From: Myxococcota bacterium
Lineage (GTDB): Bacteria > Myxococcota_A > UBA9160 > UBA6930
DNA length: 64,000 nt
Assembly (NCBI GenBank): GCA_965223415.1
Contig: OZ245002.1
Coordinates: 1,472,001-1,536,000 of the forward strand
Direction of reading: 5' to 3'
Shown here: positions 42,591-53,380 of the stretch, piece after piece
How the letters are laid out: the number at the start of each line of letters is the position of its first letter
How positions within the stretch are numbered: the first letter of the stretch is position 1
Made by a program: the position numbers and the translations under genes
The notes under the pieces: generated by a model
The model's database searches: none
What the model saw: only the letters and a program-made list of their open reading frames with translations
What the model was told of the DNA's origin: nothing

Positions 42591-42607
42591 TCGGCACGAG
42601 GCTTGCT
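42591..42607 (+). promoter_or_regulatory. sigma54 (-24/-12) promoter of the PEP-CTERM gene
   Basis: TCGGCACGAGGCTTGCT (GG-N10-GC), with an AT-rich region upstream. Confidence 0.75.
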
Positions 42608-47042: not shown

Positions 47043-49653
47043 GCCGGGCCGAGAGGCACTCCAGCCCTTCGATCACGTCGTGGAGATCGTCGAAGGGCTC
47101 GAAGGCGATGCCGCGGGTGCCGAGCTCCTCGGCCAGGGTGTCCTTGGCGAAGACGACATCGGCGGCCTCGCTGGCGCACAGGTCGGAGACGCGGCCGTTG
47201 CCCACGTGCACGACGGTGGCCTTCGGGTGGTGGCGGCGGAAGAGCTCGATGCGGCCGCGCTTGCACACGCCGGTACCGCAGCGGCAGCTGGCGTCCGGCG
47301 CACCCGGAGCCAGGCGCCAGCGCCCGTCCTCGTACCAGAGGTGGTTGGCGTCGTAGGCGAAGCGCACGCCGTGGAGCTCCTGGAGCCGGTCGAGGTTGCG
47401 GTCGAAGCCGTCCGAGAGCACCCGGAAGGGCACGCCCCGCTCCTCGCACCAGGCCACCAGGGCGTGGGCGCCGGGCATGGGCTCGATCGTCTTCAGAAAC
47501 GCGTCGAGCCGCTCCTCGGGGAGGTCGAGGCCGTCGAGCAGCTCCATGTTGTACTGCCAGGCGCTGAGCTCGCCGCGGGTGAGCCGCTCCCAGAGCGCGG
47601 CGCGCCCGTCGCTCGCCCAGGTCTTGGCGATGGTCGAGCCGACGTCCTGGACGGCGAAGGTGCCGTCGTAGTCGCAGAAGACGGCGAGGGGAACGTCCCG
47701 TGAGAAGCGAAGCAGGGACGACTCGTGGGGTGCAAGCCGGAGTGCTCCTTCCTTGGGCTGGGCACCGGCGAGGGGCTCGGGCTGCGCGAGCCCGGCGCGC
47801 TCGTGCAGCTCCTCCGCAGCGCGCTCGCGGCTCTCGTCGCCGGCGTTCAGGGCGTAGAGCCAGATCGTGTCCGCGCCCCGTGCCACCGCACCCGTGGCGA
47901 TCTCGCCCTCGGTGAGGCCGGTGGCCCGCACGGCGCCCTGGGCGCCGGCGGCGTCGATCTCCCGGGCCAGGGCGAGGGTGCTCCGAACGCGCACGAGGTC
48001 GTCGTCGGCGAGGGAAGGAAGGTCGTCCGAGACGACGGTCAGGCCGCCGGTCACCGCGATCGCGCCGGCCAGGGCCTCCACCTCGGCCGGGCTCAGCTCG
48101 GTGTCGCGGCTGCGAGCCATCAGGCAATCCGGGTCGTTGATCCACAGCCGGCGGTGCATCCAGGCCCGGGCCAGGATGCTGCGCAGGGCGCCGCGGGTGC
48201 TGGGCAGCGCCTCCTCGATCCCCGGCGGCGCACCGGGCGGCGGCTCCCAGTGGGGCGCCACGTCGGGGCCGATGCGCATGGCGTCGACCACGCCCACGGC
48301 CGCGCCGAGGGGACATCCGCAGCCGAGCAGGAACGCCTCGTCGCCGGCGCCGCGCCGGATCGCCTCGAGGCCGCGGCGCAAGCGGGCGGCGCGGGTAAGC
48401 GTGGGATCGGCGGCCACGGCCTGCATGGCGGCGACGTAGAGGAAATCGAGCTTCAGGTAGCGGAAGCCCATGCCGGCCAGGGCCGCGAAGGTGCGCAGCA
48501 GGTGCTCCGTCACCTCGTCCCGGCTCGGGTCGAGGGCATGCACCCAGCCGTGCTTCGTCCAGGCCGGGTGGAGCAGGCCGCGATGGGGACCGCCCTCTTC
48601 GCCGTGGCTCCCGAGCAGCCACTCCGGATGGGCCCGGAACAGGTGGCTCTCTCCGACGACGCAGAAGGGCGCGGTCCAGATGCCGGGCCGGAAGCCGGCG
48701 GCGCGGATCTCCGCGGCCAGGGGCGCGATGCCGCGCGGGAACTTCTCGTTCGTCTCGAGCCAATCACCGATCGCGTGCTGGTAGCCGTCGTCGAGCTGCA
48801 CCACGTCGACGGAGAAGCGGGAGCGCAGGCCGGAGAGCGCCTCCAGGTTGCGCAGCAGGTCCCGCTCGGTGACGTCGTGGAAGAACTGGTACCAGCTGCA
48901 CCAGCCCGTCGGCAGCGGCGCGCCGGTGCGGGCCCCTCCGCGCCGCCCGAGCTCCTCCGCATAGCGCTCGAGGAGCACGTTCTCGTCGTCGCCGAGCAGG
49001 ACGAGTGCGGGCTCGATCTCGAGGGCGGCGCCCGGATCGAGCGGGACCTCGAGCTGGATCTCGAGCTCCACCCGCACGCCCTGCGCGTCACGCTTCCAGT
49101 AGACGAGACCGCTCCCGAGCCCGGCCTCGAGCAGGCCGACGAGACACGCCCGACCCTGGCCGTCGCAGGCGACGGAGACGAGGGACGACTCGTGCCAACC
49201 GCTGCGGTCCGGCGGCGCCTCGCCGAGCGGGTGATGGAGACCGCGCAGCCAGGGCCCGGACGGAAAGGGAGGCTCGCCCGCCTCGTCGAGGGCGCGGCCG
49301 CCGGTGAACGACCAGGACTGCCATCCGTTCTTCAGGAAGCGCAGGGCATGGGTGTCCGCGCCACTCCAGCGGAAGCCCAACACCACGGACTCGAGATGGA
49401 GCGGCACGTCGGCGAGGTTGCGCACCGAGAGCTGGAGCTCCGCCCGCTCGCCGGCCAGATCCGCCGCGAGGCCCAGCTCGAAGGCGCCGAAGTGCTGGGC
49501 CCCGGCGGCCAGGCGACCCTCGGCCCACTCCAAGGGACCCGCGACCCCGTGCTCGCTACGGTCCGGGAGCCCCTGGGCGTAGCGCACGCCGAGCCGCACC
49601 GGCTCCAGGCGCCCGGCACGCTCGTCCCGGGCGATGGAGACGGCACGGCTCAT
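47029..49653 (-). CDS. GH36 alpha-galactosidase fused to an MtnX-like HAD phosphatase
   Basis: GWCSWY, QLDDGY, LKLDF, MRIGPD, NDPD; C-terminal FCDYDGT, LSDG, CxCGxxxCK, GNGRVSD, FAKD. Confidence 0.88.
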   Translation of the reverse strand: MSRAVSIARDERAGRLEPVRLGVRYAQGLPDRSEHGVAGPLEWAEGRLAAGAQHFGAFELGLAADLAGERAELQLSVRNLADVPLHLESVVLGFRWSGADTHALRFLKNGWQSWSFTGGRALDEAGEPPFPSGPWLRGLHHPLGEAPPDRSGWHESSLVSVACDGQGRACLVGLLEAGLGSGLVYWKRDAQGVRVELEIQLEVPLDPGAALEIEPALVLLGDDENVLLERYAEELGRRGGARTGAPLPTGWCSWYQFFHDVTERDLLRNLEALSGLRSRFSVDVVQLDDGYQHAIGDWLETNEKFPRGIAPLAAEIRAAGFRPGIWTAPFCVVGESHLFRAHPEWLLGSHGEEGGPHRGLLHPAWTKHGWVHALDPSRDEVTEHLLRTFAALAGMGFRYLKLDFLYVAAMQAVAADPTLTRAARLRRGLEAIRRGAGDEAFLLGCGCPLGAAVGVVDAMRIGPDVAPHWEPPPGAPPGIEEALPSTRGALRSILARAWMHRRLWINDPDCLMARSRDTELSPAEVEALAGAIAVTGGLTVVSDDLPSLADDDLVRVRSTLALAREIDAAGAQGAVRATGLTEGEIATGAVARGADTIWLYALNAGDESRERAAEELHERAGLAQPEPLAGAQPKEGALRLAPHESSLLRFSRDVPLAVFCDYDGTFAVQDVGSTIAKTWASDGRAALWERLTRGELSAWQYNMELLDGLDLPEERLDAFLKTIEPMPGAHALVAWCEERGVPFRVLSDGFDRNLDRLQELHGVRFAYDANHLWYEDGRWRLAPGAPDASCRCGTGVCKRGRIELFRRHHPKATVVHVGNGRVSDLCASEAADVVFAKDTLAEELGTRGIAFEPFDDLHDVIEGLECLSARLQAP

Positions 49654-50596
49654 GGCGGCCGAGGATAACAAGAGCCTCCGGGCGCGATTCGCGCGCCGCG
49701 AACGCGCACTGGTGCTGGACGGCGCGACGGGCACCGAGCTGGAGCGGCGCGGTGCGCCCTGCGCGTTGCCGCTCTGGTCGACGGGCGGCCTGCTGAGTTC
49801 GCCGGATCTCGTCCGCGAGATCCACGCCGACTACGCGCGGGCCGGCTGCGACCTGCTCACCGCGGCGACCTTTCGCACCCAGGGGCGGGTGCTCGCGCAG
49901 GTCGGTCTCGGCGGGAGGGCGGCCTCCTTGACCACACTGGCAGTGCGGCTCGCACGGGAGGCGGGCCCGGACCGGACGGTGCTCGGCTCCGCGCCACCCC
50001 TGGAGGATTGCTACCACCCGGAGCGCGTCCCGGCGGACGACGCCCTCGCCCGCGAGCACGAAGAGCACGCGGGGCACCTGGCGACCGCGGGCGCCGACGG
50101 AATCCTGGCCGAGACCCACAACACCGCCCGGGAGGCCAGGGCGGCGGCGCGGGCGGCGGGCGCGGTGGGCCTGCCGGTGTGGGTGAGCTTCGTGTGCGAC
50201 GGATCGGGTCGCCTGCTCTCGGGTGAGCCTCTCGAAGCCGGGCTCGAGGCGGTGGCCGGGGAGGCGCCTCTCGGTGTGGGCGTGAACTGCCTGCCCGCCG
50301 ATGCGGTGGACGCGTGCCTGCCCGTGCTGGAGGCGAGCGGCCTCCCCTTCCTGGTCTCTGCCAACCTGGGTGCGCCGGTCGAGGGCGCACCAAGCGGCCG
50401 CAGCGACCCGCTCGGCCCCGACGAGCTCGCGGCGCGCGCACGGGGCTGGATCGAAGCCGGCGCCGAGATCGTCGGCGGATGCTGCGGAACGAGACCGGAG
50501 CACCTCGCCGCCCTCGCCCGTCTCGTGGCCGCGCACGGGCCGCGCATCGGGACGGCAGCGGATGCGCAGCTCAATTCGGGGCACGGTCGCCGGTGA
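49652..50596 (+). CDS. Homocysteine S-methyltransferase family protein
   Basis: LDGATGTEL, LWS, GVNC, VGGCCG; start uncertain (overlaps the divergent ATG). Confidence 0.88.
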   Translation: MAAEDNKSLRARFARRERALVLDGATGTELERRGAPCALPLWSTGGLLSSPDLVREIHADYARAGCDLLTAATFRTQGRVLAQVGLGGRAASLTTLAVRLAREAGPDRTVLGSAPPLEDCYHPERVPADDALAREHEEHAGHLATAGADGILAETHNTAREARAAARAAGAVGLPVWVSFVCDGSGRLLSGEPLEAGLEAVAGEAPLGVGVNCLPADAVDACLPVLEASGLPFLVSANLGAPVEGAPSGRSDPLGPDELAARARGWIEAGAEIVGGCCGTRPEHLAALARLVAAHGPRIGTAADAQLNSGHGRR

Positions 50597-50720
50597 CCCA
50601 AATTGTGTCACCCGGCTCCTCTCGGCCGGCGTGAGACGCGCGCCGCGGATGCGCAGCTCCGCCCGCAACCGACCAGCCCGCGGGCCCGCACGAGGGAGCG
50701 TGGGCCGGCCCCCCCGCCGA

Positions 50721-50736
50721 TGGCACGTGCCTTGCT
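50721..50736 (+). promoter_or_regulatory. Consensus sigma54 promoter with no downstream CDS
   Basis: TGGCACGTGCCTTGCT. Confidence 0.8.
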
Positions 50737-50746
50737 TTCTCATGGT

Positions 50747-50828
50747 TTCCAGCACGTTCTTGGCGCCCGGGCCGGCTACCCCTCCCCTCGTGCTTGCACG
50801 AGGAGTCGACCCGGGCGCTTTTCTCTTT
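50747..50828 (+). ncRNA. Candidate sigma54-dependent small RNA
   Basis: Follows the sigma54 promoter; long bulged hairpin 50762-50819 with ACCCCTCC bulge; ends in TTTTCTCTTT. Confidence 0.55.
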
Positions 50829-50834
50829 CCGCGC

Positions 50835-52076
50835 TCAGGACCGGTAGCGGGGCTCGGGCACCGCGTGCAGCACCCATGCGACGGCCGCGAGCTGGAAGGC
50901 GATCGCCGTCCAGAAGACCGCCTCGTAGGAGACGGTGGCCGCCAGCACGCCGCCGACCAGCGGTCCGAGGGCGCCGACGAGCTCGCTGGCGGAGTTGGCG
51001 ACGGCGATGCGCATGGGGAGGTTCTCGCGGCTGCCGAACTCGAGCACCAGGTTCTGGGACGCCATCTGGAAGCCGCCAAAGCCGGCGCCCAGGCCGAGCA
51101 TGATCAGCACGAGCACCGCGGGCTCGTCGCCGGCGGTCATCAGGGCCAGAGCCGCCCCGACCCACAGCAGCAGGGACGCGATGAAGATCGCGCGGAAGCC
51201 GGTGCGGTCGGCGATCTCCCCCCAGGCCAGGTTTCCCATGCTCCAGGAGAGCAGGAACGCCATCGTGAGCGGGCCGAGCATGGCGGGGCCGGCGTCCGCG
51301 TAGAGCACGTAGAACGGCACGGACATCCGGCCCATCGTCGCGAGAGCGCGCGCCAGGAAGTAGCGGGTGAAGGCGGGGTCGCTTCGAAGGAGCGCGGGCA
51401 GCTCCGTGAGCCGACTGCCCACGCGGCTGGCACTGCGAACGCTCGGCGACTCCGGCTCGCGGATGAACGCGAGCATGGAGAGGCCGAGGGCGGTGAGCGC
51501 GAACGAGAGCAGGAAGGTCGCGGCGTAGCCGTTGCCGAGGGCGCCGATCTCGACCAGGTGGCCACCGACGCCGCCCACCGCCACCGCGGTGATTCCCGCC
51601 AGCGCGTTGCGCAGCCCCATCAGGCGTCCGCGGCGCTCGATGGGGATCACCTTCGACACCAGGGTGCTGAAGATCACCCCCTGCATGCCCATGAAGAAGC
51701 CGAACAGCGCCAGGATGGCGCAGATCGCCACCAGCGCGGGGGTGCCCGAGAGGAAGAACCCGACCAGCGCCAGGCCCAACACCTGGACGCGCATCAGACC
51801 GCCGATCCAGAAGCCCATCGGCAGGACGCGGCGACGATGCTCGATGGCGGTGGCGCCGAGCACTGGCGAGAGGAACATGCCCAGGGATTGGAAGGCGCGC
51901 GCTGCGCCGACGGCGATCGGCGTGCCGGCAATCAGCTCCACGTACATCGGGATGAAGGTCGGCGCCTGGATCAGGCGGAAGCCGGTCTGGCCCAGGAGAC
52001 CGTGGGCCAGGTGCGCGAGGTAGTTGCGACGCAGGTGGCGCTGGGCCTCGGCCTGGAAGCGCTCCTCGTCGTTCAC
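50835..52076 (-). CDS. MFS transporter
   Basis: About 12 hydrophobic segments, ERRGRL, WGEIADRTG; GTGA overlap with folC. Confidence 0.88.
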   Translation of the reverse strand: MNDEERFQAEAQRHLRRNYLAHLAHGLLGQTGFRLIQAPTFIPMYVELIAGTPIAVGAARAFQSLGMFLSPVLGATAIEHRRRVLPMGFWIGGLMRVQVLGLALVGFFLSGTPALVAICAILALFGFFMGMQGVIFSTLVSKVIPIERRGRLMGLRNALAGITAVAVGGVGGHLVEIGALGNGYAATFLLSFALTALGLSMLAFIREPESPSVRSASRVGSRLTELPALLRSDPAFTRYFLARALATMGRMSVPFYVLYADAGPAMLGPLTMAFLLSWSMGNLAWGEIADRTGFRAIFIASLLLWVGAALALMTAGDEPAVLVLIMLGLGAGFGGFQMASQNLVLEFGSRENLPMRIAVANSASELVGALGPLVGGVLAATVSYEAVFWTAIAFQLAAVAWVLHAVPEPRYRS

Positions 52077-53380
52077 GGCGCGAGCACGGCGCGGGCGATG
52101 CCGGCCAGGTACATCGAGCCCGTGGCGCACAGGAGATCGTCGGGCCCGGTCTCGGCCGACGCGCGGGCGAGCGCTTCGCGGGGATCCTCGACGCTGCGTA
52201 CGTCCGCCTGGGGAAGAGCCCGGCGCAGCTCGGCGCCCAGGGTCTCGGGCGCGAGCGAGCGCACCGGCTCGGCGCGGGTGGCGTAGAAGACGTCACCTTG
52301 GTCGCCGAGGGCACGGGCGATCGCGTCCAGGTCCTTGCCGGCGGAGACGGACACGACGAAGCGTCCCCGCCGATGGGGCATGTGCGCCAGGGCGTCGGCG
52401 AGGGCCCGGGCAGAAGCCGCGGTGTGGGCGCCGTCGACCACGATCCACGGCCGCTCCGAGAGGATCTCGATCCGCGCGGGCAGGCGGGCCGCCGCGAAGG
52501 CGCGCGGGGCGGCTTCGGCCAGACGCTCCAGCGGCAGCGCCTCCAAGCGCTTGACGCACGCCAGGGCGAGGGCAGCGTTCACGGCCTGATGGGCACCGGG
52601 CGTCGCGAGCTCGGCGCGAAGCTCGAGCTCCCCGTCGCGCACGTGCAGGCGCACGCGCGGCCCCTTCGTCTCGCCGACCTCGAGGAAGAAGTCCCGGCCC
52701 AACGCGACGAGGGGAGCGCCGACCTCGCTACAGCGCGCGCGCACCACCCGCGCCGCCTCCTCCGGCAGCCGGCCCATGACGAGCGGCACCCCGGGCTTCG
52801 CGATGCCCGCCTTCTCGGCGGCGATCGCAACCAGCGTGCTCCCGAGCTTTTCCGTGTGCTCGAGCTCGATGCTCGTGACGCAGGTGACCGCCGGCGCCAC
52901 CGCGTTGGTCGAGTCGAGGCGTCCGCCGAGACCCACCTCGAGGATCGCCACGTCCACCCCTGCCTCCGCGAAGAGCAGGAGTGCCGCCGCGGTCGTGACG
53001 TCGAAGAAGCTGGGCGCGTCCGGTTGTCCGCGCAGCGCCATGACCGGCTCGCGCAGCGTCGCCACCGCCGCTCCGAGGCGCGCGCCGGAGACCGGCGTGC
53101 CACCCAGCCGGAAACGCTCCGTCCAGCTCTCGAGATGGGGCGAGGTGAAGGTCCCCACCTCCAACCCGGTCTCCCGCAACAGGGCCTCGGCGAAGAGCGC
53201 CGTCGAGCCCTTGCCCTTGGAGCCGGCCACGTGGAGAATGCACAGGCCGTCCTGGGGATTGCCGAGCGCCTCGAGCAGCTGCGTCACCGGGGCGAGGGAG
53301 AGGCGTGCGCGGCGCAGGTCGGGCATGCGCTCGACGTTGATCAGCCCGGCCAGCCAGGCCTCCGCCTCCTCCCCGGTCAT
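52073..53380 (-). CDS. folC: Folylpolyglutamate synthase / dihydrofolate synthase
   Basis: HVAGSKGKGST, FTSPHL, EVGLGGRLDSTN, DGAH, TGSMYLAG. Confidence 0.95.
   Translation of the reverse strand: MTGEEAEAWLAGLINVERMPDLRRARLSLAPVTQLLEALGNPQDGLCILHVAGSKGKGSTALFAEALLRETGLEVGTFTSPHLESWTERFRLGGTPVSGARLGAAVATLREPVMALRGQPDAPSFFDVTTAAALLLFAEAGVDVAILEVGLGGRLDSTNAVAPAVTCVTSIELEHTEKLGSTLVAIAAEKAGIAKPGVPLVMGRLPEEAARVVRARCSEVGAPLVALGRDFFLEVGETKGPRVRLHVRDGELELRAELATPGAHQAVNAALALACVKRLEALPLERLAEAAPRAFAAARLPARIEILSERPWIVVDGAHTAASARALADALAHMPHRRGRFVVSVSAGKDLDAIARALGDQGDVFYATRAEPVRSLAPETLGAELRRALPQADVRSVEDPREALARASAETGPDDLLCATGSMYLAGIARAVLAP

Follow-up and report, generated by a model that had tools for sequence, protein, structure and literature searches.

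In the GlmY/GlmZ-GlrR and Qrr-LuxO systems of enterobacteria and vibrios, a small-RNA gene is driven by a dedicated sigma-54 activator that binds upstream sites. The GlrR site reads TGTC-N10-GACA, and the GlmY/GlmZ and Qrr RNAs depend on Hfq or RapZ. Pxr, from Myxococcus xanthus and other Cystobacterineae, is described as a 108 nt RNA with three stem-loops; its predicted promoter is of the sigma-54 type and has an enhancer region upstream, its functionally critical C-rich element lies in a hairpin loop, and the published Northern probe for stem-loop 1 is G-rich (PMC5684412, PMC5568312). In the same accounts, M. xanthus has no hfq gene, tandem paralogs of Pxr occur in some genera, and Pxr always adjoins the activator gene nla19/pxrR, with an NADH dehydrogenase gene on its other side (PMC5684412, PMC5568312). 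For Desulfovibrio vulgaris, the sigma-54-type response regulator DVU0679 is reported to have a mapped target, Dv_sRNA2, whose function is given as unknown (PMC3333781). Lastly, 6C RNA of Actinobacteria and RsaE/RoxS, IsrR and LhrC of Firmicutes are described as pairing with G-rich ribosome-binding regions through unpaired C-rich motifs, free of a chaperone, and RNAs of the 6C/RsaE kind are described from organisms that include high-GC ones (PMC6486639).

The locus studied here lies in a stretch of 64,000 nt, hereafter the window, from a 5.83 Mb genome (G000; 97% complete) of a lineage known only from metagenome-assembled genomes. We propose that it is probably a stand-alone gene for a regulatory RNA of ~80 nt that is switched by sigma-54 and an activator, and that acts in trans by Hfq-free pairing of a C-rich patch with mRNAs. 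Like Pxr, it combines a sigma-54 promoter and an upstream enhancer-type site with a C-rich element and an Hfq-less host; a search for an Hfq gene (PF17209) gave no match in the host genome, while control genomes were positive. Unlike Pxr as published, the RNA is one compound hairpin after a leader that is 10-28 nt long across homologs, its C-rich part sits in a bulge, the window has no activator gene, and the constant neighbour is a homocysteine methyltransferase gene. With GlmY/GlmZ-GlrR and Qrr-LuxO it shares a sigma-54 promoter and an upstream site, which is here unique in the genome; it differs from GlmY/GlmZ and Qrr in that no Rfam sequence or structure match, and no host Hfq gene, was found, and its palindrome, GTGAC-N9-GTCAC, is not the GlrR site. 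The motifs of 6C, RsaE/RoxS, IsrR and LhrC, in the descriptions available, lie in hairpin loops or single-stranded stretches, are usually repeated and belong to RNAs with promoters other than sigma-54; no Rfam match of the present RNA to any of these families was found. Dv_sRNA2, which we liken to it from the published description alone, lies directly downstream of its regulator gene, unlike the present RNA (PMC3333781).

We rate the RNA as falling among the sigma-54- and activator-dependent, C-rich, Hfq-independent small RNAs such as Pxr. It would add one more lineage to those where a sigma-54 activator seems to act through a single RNA of that kind, an arrangement that may be recurrent. Beyond cultured model bacteria, hardly any small RNAs are known; here, one is defined purely by comparative genomics, with its promoter, activator site, structure and proposed seed all resolved in a metagenome-only lineage. 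In practice, the analysis supplies a covariance model that can be used in annotation, a concrete target pair open to testing and, in the unique DNA site, a handle for finding the activator.

Promoter, upstream palindrome and hairpin

The original prediction had placed an enhancer-controlled small RNA between two convergent genes. All of its elements were recovered where it had put them, except for the pairing of the inner stem, which it gave as 8 pairs with a 2-nt loop and which we correct to 7 pairs with the loop CUUG. The features are:

49634..50596, plus strand: homocysteine S-methyltransferase gene (Pfam PF02574, E 1.9e-60)
50558..50572, plus strand: direct repeat copy 1, GCGGATGCGCAGCTC, within the 3' end of the methyltransferase gene
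50593..50611, no strand assigned: 19-bp palindrome GTGACCCAAATTGTGTCAC, predicted binding site (upstream activating sequence) of a sigma-54 activator dimer
50645..50659, plus strand: direct repeat copy 2, GCGGATGCGCAGCTC, between palindrome and promoter
50721..50736, plus strand: sigma-54 promoter TGGCACGTGCCTTGCT, with -24 TGGCAC and -12 TTGCT
50747..50828, plus strand: predicted small RNA of ~80-82 nt, in which a single-stranded leader of 15 nt is followed by the compound hairpin and then by a U-rich tail; both ends predicted
50762..50819, plus strand: compound hairpin of outer, middle and inner stems, minimum free energy (MFE) -39.7 kcal/mol
50762-71/50810-19, plus strand: outer stem
50773-77/50804-08, plus strand: middle stem
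50778..50785, plus strand: unpaired bulge ACCCCTCC (ACCCCUCC as RNA), the proposed seed
50779..50790, plus strand: nearly invariant CCCCUCCCCUCG, invariant in 25 of the 26 sequences of alignment A1 and nearly so in alignment A2
50786-92/50797-803, plus strand: inner stem, 7 pairs, loop CUUG
50820..50828, plus strand: U-rich tail TTTTCTCTTT (UUUCUCUUU past the stem), presumed intrinsic terminator tail
50835..52130, minus strand: convergent MFS transporter gene (Pfam PF07690); this downstream neighbour varies among relatives

The promoter is the sole exact match to the consensus TGGCAC-N5-TTGCW in the 64-kb window; three matches were found with at most one mismatch, versus 0.63 expected. All 52 distinct homologs have a -24/-12 motif, placed 18-106 nt ahead of the stem, versus none of 30 chance pattern matches that the covariance model described below scores as negative. 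The host genome encodes rpoN (Sigma54_DBD match of 212.7 bits), such that both marks of a sigma-54-dependent unit, a -24/-12 element of the form GG-N10-GC and rpoN, are present. Comparison with relatives supports the proposal that this promoter drives no protein gene. Conservation of promoter and bulge in relatives had been named as one of the checks on which the prediction turned; the promoter is present in every homolog, as above, and the bulge is nearly invariant.

The palindrome is the core of a dyad, GGTGAC-N9-GTCACC, at 50592-50612, and its centre is 119 bp ahead of the -24 element. That this dyad is a conserved enhancer-type site agrees with its presence in all 33 homologs with enough upstream DNA (at least 190 nt), 31 of which have the consensus GTGACnCAAnTTGnGTCAC and the remaining two the same site with a 1-nt insertion. 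Across homologs, 92-136 bp (mostly 105-126) separate the centre of the palindrome from the promoter downstream, a conserved spacing that lies in the range for an activator site (~80-150 bp). When up to three mismatches were allowed, the 5.83 Mb of the host genome held two sites, the palindrome itself and one match with three mismatches. This uniqueness suggests a one-promoter regulon, like GlrR-glmY. The host genome has ~22 candidate sigma-54 activator genes; none of the Sigma54_activat genes falls within the 64-kb window, the nearest being at genome position 1,434,007, and no activator gene adjoins the RNA, within about 1.5 kb, in 35 loci. The 15-bp direct repeat that brackets the palindrome is real, since 0 of 200 shuffles reach it, but it is not conserved: among 33 other homologs, L005 alone shows something comparable at these offsets, a repeat of 9 nt. 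By eye, loosely similar CTGC-type tandem motifs occur in relatives at the region of copy 2.

The spacing from a sigma-54 promoter to its transcription start is well established, and the predicted start near 50747 is taken from the usual value. Downstream of it, the hairpin is more stable than expected by chance (z = -4.1; 0 of 200 shuffles were equally stable), and the MFE structure equals the centroid and holds 39% of the ensemble. A hairpin alignment of 66 distinct rows has 97.7% of its cells paired and compensatory changes at 14 of 22 pairs; none of 500 shuffles reached this pairing and covariation, and slid controls were 27-49% paired. The hairpin that had been drawn from one sequence is by this measure a covarying RNA structure. 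In the outer stem (CGCCCGG/CCGGGCG), neither strand varies, nor does the base of the inner stem, and little covariation is seen in either. The bulge is exposed, as had been predicted, with an unpaired probability of ~1.0, and is nearly invariant (CCCCUCC) although unpaired. The placement of a seed within a bulge is unusual. In the sister family f13, we see by eye one additional 5' hairpin.

An open plus-strand frame, 50603-51103, crosses the region, as such frames commonly do at 71% G+C, and could be taken to encode a small protein. Against this, the homolog cores (69-77 nt) differ by indels, both within and outside the loop, whose lengths are not divisible by three; the leader varies in sequence as well as in length and has no conserved start codon; and substitutions preserve pairs. 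We give a coding function practically no chance.

In the window, the strong hairpin is followed by UUUUCUCUUU; the tails of relatives are weaker (for example, CUUCGUCGUU), and many have a poor U-tract. A simple terminator scan called no terminator at the hairpin; the definition used by the scan excludes stems that are broken by a bulge of 8 nt. In the minus-strand direction, AAGAACG comes after the hairpin in place of a T-run, which argues against a mere bidirectional terminator accompanied by a chance sigma-54-like motif, the reading that the original prediction had set against itself. The hairpin does lie between two convergent stop codons in the window, but promoter, palindrome, bulge and structure are co-conserved across the order and its sister family, whatever the downstream orientation. 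These comparative data contradict the terminator reading, which we find hardly credible.

Neighbouring genes

Of 35 distinct 3-kb loci, 27 have a co-oriented homocysteine methyltransferase homolog as the gene directly upstream, and in the window the stop codon of this gene falls within the left arm of the palindrome. The downstream neighbour across the 35 loci is a GH20 hydrolase gene (n=18), a FolC-like gene (n=8) or an MFS gene (n=6). Where it is GH20, these homologous genes are co-oriented with the RNA and begin 10-150 nt past the hairpin, as would be expected if the RNA were, now or ancestrally, a cis-acting leader or attenuator of the hydrolase, with the hairpin as a conditional terminator. 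The RNA is equally conserved beside the convergent MFS and FolC-like genes, and no antiterminator fold is evident, the MFE structure being also the centroid. Moreover, a -10-like box of its own lies 7-10 nt ahead of the GH20 ATG, and the gene has no Shine-Dalgarno sequence to mask; it was rejected as a cis target on the same two grounds. A cis-acting leader is, in our view, very unlikely. We count the independence of the RNA from its neighbours, seen in the varying downstream gene and in the -10-like box of the co-oriented GH20, in favour of a stand-alone gene.

Distribution and family status

The core of the RNA was found by BLAST in 32 of 41 relatives. With a covariance model, R1, the RNA is detected in 139 of 151 genomes from the order, among them 84 of the 91 high-quality genomes, in 60 of 65 genera, and in all four sampled genomes of sister family f13; among 123 sampled genomes of the phylum from outside the class, there was no R1 match above 31 bits. 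Genomes without the RNA include the small ones G008, G010, G017, G019 and G024. The RNA is single-copy in the host genome, where it scores 87 bits, and some other genomes have tandem double copies under one promoter. A loose sequence pattern found 119 loci in public contigs, of which R1 accepts 26 (18/80 and 8/39). Public records that hold the RNA mostly carry Myxococcota or Deltaproteobacteria labels. The other pattern-matched loci, including one record labelled Anaeromyxobacter and one labelled Archangium, are R1-negative and were set aside as chance matches in other phyla.

The original prediction had asked for an Rfam search and suggested a possibly new family. No Rfam 15 family reached its gathering threshold anywhere in the window. 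When the search was relaxed to E <= 10 over 49500-52000, the sole overlap was with ncS54, which scored 17.5 bits (cut-off 43) and covered just the terminator stem. We take the RNA to be a new family given this absence of Rfam matches, and set it apart from Pxr by the probe sequence and the published description. The probe sequence for stem-loop 1 of Pxr, as given in the published account (PMC5568312), was found at up to three mismatches in none of 401 sampled genomes of the phylum, G000 included. A kinship with Pxr, which the original prediction had cited, is not supported, given that the probe sequence is absent, no activator gene adjoins the RNA, and the architecture differs. We found no description of the RNA in the open-access literature searched.

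Mode of action and candidate targets

From the conserved anatomy, we propose that a sigma-54 activator would bind the 19-bp palindrome ~135 bp upstream of the start and turn on the -24/-12 promoter at 50721-36, and that the large hairpin and U-rich tail would end transcription. The RNA would then act in trans, without Hfq, its C-rich patch (the bulge ACCCCUCC continuing into CCUCG) pairing with G-rich ribosome-binding regions such that translation or stability is altered. The tail of the host 16S RNA contains CCUCC, and Shine-Dalgarno motifs in the host peak at -13 to -9.

The host genome contains 188 sites with an exact complement of 10 nt or more, with no evident enrichment at start codons. 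The best single site, a 12-nt perfect complement, lies 10 nt before the GTG of a Methyltransf_24 gene; this gene is found in one of 40 relatives and absent from the other 39, and was therefore rejected as a conserved target. An ABC-F gene was rejected likewise, its complementarity being restricted to the genus (-18.4 kcal/mol or better in 2 of 25 orthologs), as was the homocysteine methyltransferase gene, whose start region has no complementarity. The cross-genome target test covered three candidates, two of which, the Methyltransf_24 and ABC-F genes, failed; the ABC-F gene serves as a control for the third.

The best candidate target is the mRNA of G000:C1:4829305-4830309, a class-specific relative of the sigma-54 activator genes that is without the GAFTGA motif. 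Its ribosome-binding region is a conserved G-run; the host version, GGGAGGGGU, is exactly complementary to the bulge and one further base, and the candidate ranks sixth among 2707 start regions of the host genome. Single-copy orthologs are present in 28 of 31 relatives, and their starts were anchored on a conserved TTGACA-N17-CAATAG promoter; a conserved CTCGCAA(A/T)TT motif sits just before the -35 box. Of the 22 promoter-anchored orthologs, 17 fall in the best 5% of the host-genome background and 8 in the best 1%, and five, such as L250, lie outside the best 5%; the target background is one genome with crude gene calls, and the relatives are not independent of one another. A G-run of at least five occurs in only 4.2% of crude start regions and, by eye, in 4/4 orthologs of family f13 and 7/9 of family f11. 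The G-run also pairs with the ribosome's own CCUCC, and so need not exist for the RNA. In a single sample of 151 genomes, gene and RNA are both restricted to the class. G008 and G017 keep the activator-like gene with no match to the RNA, and G033 and G041 hold the RNA with no activator-like ortholog at E <= 1e-45. When the RNA and the candidate leader were cofolded, no bulge pairing was predicted; nested folding cannot represent pairing of a bulge, and the whole-molecule duplex energy from cofolding is meaningless.

The pairing of a seed leaves the invariance of the outer stem unexplained, which could point to a protein partner. The RNA might be a genuine sigma-54-dependent transcript that binds or sequesters a protein through bulge and outer stem, in the manner of the CsrB/RsmZ or CrcZ decoys. 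In keeping with this, the outer-stem strands and inner-stem base are invariant beyond the needs of a pairing seed, a convincing multi-gene target set was not found, and the tandem double copies in some genomes resemble multi-site decoys. On the other hand, each RNA has a single binding motif where known decoys have many, the unpaired CCCCUCC complements the conserved G-run of one class-specific gene, and no candidate protein partner was identified. We judge a protein decoy unlikely, though with some real chance of being correct.

Within our preferred reading of a trans-acting, pairing RNA, there is a small chance of a class-specific switch in two parts, the RNA and the activator-like protein without GAFTGA, that works as a mixed feedback loop. 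The RNA would mask the G-run ribosome-binding site of the mRNA for this protein; the protein, which would retain its C-terminal DNA-binding part and be unable to activate sigma-54, might bind a CGCAAATTG-type core common to the palindrome of the RNA and the CTCGCAA(A/T)TT motif of its own gene, and compete there with the true activator. If true, a decayed sigma-54 activator would be joined with a sigma-54 small RNA in one feedback loop.

Locus and distribution of the predicted RNA

The predicted transcript, at about 50747-50828 (+), is very probably a genuine small RNA gene, transcribed independently and dependent on sigma-54. The sigma-54 element, dyad, repeat, hairpin, bulge and tail of the original prediction were all found where it had placed them, as follows.

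49634-50596, plus strand: homocysteine S-methyltransferase gene, flanking the RNA on one side
50558 and 50645: copies of a 15-bp direct repeat (sequence inspection)
50592-612: dyad (sequence inspection)
50721-36, plus strand: sigma-54 element TGGCACGTGCCTTGCT (sequence inspection)
50762-50819, plus strand: compound hairpin (sequence and fold)
50778-85, plus strand: unpaired ACCCCTCC within the compound hairpin
End of the predicted RNA: tail TTTTCTCTTT
50835-52130, minus strand: MFS transporter gene, flanking the RNA on the other side

A BLAST search with the intergenic region matched 32 of 41 related genomes, centred on 50757-50824 at 75-91% identity, with many matches reaching back exactly as far as the promoter. 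Twenty-six homologs were used to build a MAFFT alignment (A1) and a covariance model (R1). R1 finds a single copy in the own genome, and matches 139 of 151 genomes in the window's order (84 of 91 high-quality genomes; 60 of 65 genera) and all four sampled genomes of f13, a sister family in the same class; over the rest of the phylum sample, 123 genomes, no match exceeded 31 bits. Scanning public genomes with a sequence pattern yielded 119 loci, of which R1 accepts 26; all 26 are metagenome-assembled genomes, with no cultured organism among them, and their records are labelled Myxococcota (8), Deltaproteobacteria or delta proteobacterium (11), Proteobacteria (2), uncultured Myxococcaceae (2), and Spirochaetales, Gammaproteobacteria and "bacterium" (1 each).

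Two loci arrangements stand apart. On a 2872-bp contig (G001:C406; L003 and L161) the entire locus is present twice in inverted orientation, for which faulty assembly is a likelier explanation than biology. In family f4, some genomes (L234, G061:C4:2637900-2638700; L235, G075:C128; L146) carry two RNA copies head to tail, 7-71 nt apart; since only the first copy is preceded by a sigma-54 promoter, the arrangement suggests a dimeric transcript, or else transcription reading through the first hairpin.

Structure, promoter and palindrome

Folding of the predicted RNA gives -39.7 kcal/mol (z = -4.1), a stability matched by 0 of 200 shuffles; the inner stem has 7 pairs and a CUUG loop. Covariation supports this hairpin. 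In alignment A2 (78 matches, 66 distinct rows, one of them an antisense hit), which leans towards the structure because it was fitted to the model, 97.7% of cells pair and 14 of 22 pairs show compensatory changes; these values were reached by 0 of 500 shuffles, and pairing falls to 27-49% when the 3' partners are slid. A1, an independent alignment free of that bias, gives 94.8% pairing and 9 compensatory pairs, and RNAalifold predicts the same structure. A few genomes have paired changes in the conserved CCUCG/CGAGG stem, e.g. CCAUCG/CGAUG and CCCCCG/CGGGG. By contrast, the CCCCUCC bulge hardly changes across the alignments, and its computed unpaired probability is ~1.0, bearing out the claim that it is exposed. 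A coding reading is excluded, because length differences are not multiples of three and no start codon is conserved. The f13 version (L230-L233) has an additional GC-rich hairpin in its leader, and its outer stem directly follows a conserved GGGAG that might base-pair with the bulge.

Within the 64-kb window there is a single exact match to the sigma-54 consensus, and the own genome encodes rpoN. Among homologs, a (T/G)GGCA(C/T)-N5-TTGC element lies 18-106 nt before the stem in 52 of 52 distinct sequences, and in 0 of 30 model-negative chance matches. A looser pattern, TGGCA(C/T)-N5-TTGC(A/T/C), has 31 sites in the whole genome; another sigma-54-like site, CGGCACGAGGCTTGCT, one mismatch away from the consensus, is at 42592-42607 (+) in the window.

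In k-mer counts of the upstream regions, CAAATTG / GTGACACAA stands out, and this is the dyad that had been proposed as enhancer-like. It belongs to a 19-bp palindrome, GTGACnCAAnTTGnGTCAC, found with at most 4 mismatches in 31 of the 33 homologs with at least 190 nt upstream; the other two carry it with one nucleotide inserted. Its centre precedes the -24 element by 92-136 bp (mostly 105-126), and it is unique in the 5.83-Mb genome, where allowing up to 3 mismatches adds just one site, with 3. Judged from sequence, this is how a sigma-54 promoter served by its own upstream activating sequence is laid out. In the sister family the promoter is retained and the palindrome is looser. The original prediction is supported in part: promoter, dyad, covarying hairpin and bulge are conserved, but the direct repeat, although more than chance in the window (0 of 200 shuffles), is not kept in relatives. 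Among 33 other homologs L005 alone has a repeat at those offsets; it is 9 nt long, and 3 of 200 shuffles do as well. By eye, many families show short CTGC-type tandem motifs following the palindrome.

Neighbouring genes and known small RNAs

In 27 of 35 distinct loci, the RNA is immediately preceded by a co-oriented homocysteine methyltransferase gene. What follows it differs: a co-oriented GH20 hydrolase (18), a convergent FolC-like gene (8) or a convergent MFS gene (6). We rejected the RNA as a GH20 leader, because GH20, where downstream, carries a TAGACT/TAAGAT box of its own 7-10 nt ahead of the ATG and is without a Shine-Dalgarno sequence. More generally, genes adjoining the RNA in relatives (downstream, L009-L181; upstream of the methyltransferase gene, L011, L014, L016 and others) have -10-like boxes (TAGACT/TAAGAT; GAGTATAAC) just 6-10 nt before the ATG and lack a Shine-Dalgarno sequence, which suggests that this lineage commonly has leaderless mRNAs.

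In its predicted way of working the RNA resembles the sigma-54/activator-dependent small RNAs Pxr, GlmY, Qrr and Dv_sRNA2, as well as 6C and RoxS, small RNAs with C-rich seeds. It is a member of none of these families, since Rfam 15 holds no match, the Pxr SL1 probe sequence occurs in 0 of 401 sampled genomes, and architecture and neighbours differ. Whereas pxr adjoins the activator gene nla19, according to passages of PMC5684412 and PMC5568312, no locus here has an activator gene within about 1.5 kb of the RNA, and none of the ~22 activator genes of the own genome lies inside the window. The Rfam result agrees with the claim of novelty, and the predicted RNA represents a new family.

Candidate targets of the bulge

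The organism uses Shine-Dalgarno sequences (16S tail GGATCACCTCCTTTC; motifs peak at -13 to -9), and no Hfq gene was detected in the own genome. The invariant, exposed CCCCUCC would therefore most plausibly pair with G-rich ribosome-binding regions, a reading to which we give an even chance; C-rich small RNAs of other Hfq-less bacteria are reported to act through such regions (PMC6486639 and related papers). Start regions, taken from crude gene calls, were ranked by the energy of their duplex with the seed, and three of the top-ranked candidates were compared across genomes, with one genome (the own) as background. At G000:C1:4435553-4435564, 10 nt before the GTG of a Methyltransf_24 gene, 12 nt are perfectly complementary to the invariant CCCCUCCCCUCG. 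This site was rejected as a conserved target, because the accessory gene is present in 1 of 40 relatives; it could be a target particular to the strain, or a chance match. An ABC-F gene was also rejected, its complementarity being confined to the genus.

The third, an activator-like gene (G000:C1:4829305-4830309), ranks 6 of 2707 with conserved complementarity, and is a tentative candidate for a specific target. Its leader, GGGAGGGGU, is the exact complement of ACCCCUCCC. Its TTGACA-N17-CAATAG promoter is conserved in 22 of 28 orthologs; of the start regions anchored on it, 17 of 22 rank within the top 5% of the own-genome background (~1 expected, although the relatives are not independent) and 8 of 22 within the top 1%. 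Of the crude start regions, 4.2% contain a G-run of at least 5. By eye, separately fetched orthologs have the G-run in 4 of 4 cases in f13 and 7 of 9 in f11, and one f7 and one f9 ortholog lack it. The G-run also suits the ribosome itself. Two genomes (G008, G017) keep the gene without the RNA, and two (G033, G041) have the RNA with no ortholog detected.

The 334-aa product is a relative of sigma-54 activators, with a partial Sigma54_activat domain and AAA_lid_14 (Pfam); its best NCBIfam match, GlrR, is far under the cut-off. A GVYPAV-like sequence replaces GAFTGA in 28 of 28 orthologs; those of the window's family also have an altered Walker A. The gene is single-copy in 28 of 31 relatives and class-confined (25 genomes in the class, 0 outside, in the same 151-genome phylum sample). 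Its locus (G000:C1:4829150-4830309, L238), beside mutL-like and pgi genes, combines the very conserved promoter and G-run ribosome-binding site with a CTCGCAA(A/T)TT motif, similar to the palindrome core of the RNA gene, directly before the -35 box.

Elsewhere on G000:C1, an identical stretch occurs at least 7 times (e.g. 1069248, 1260675, 1858938, 2362471, 4410102, 5389606 and 5427050) and a 424-aa open frame that begins with a helix-turn-helix-like segment is present in 3 identical copies (1086703, 1213869 and 1852488); together they are probably a multi-copy insertion sequence.
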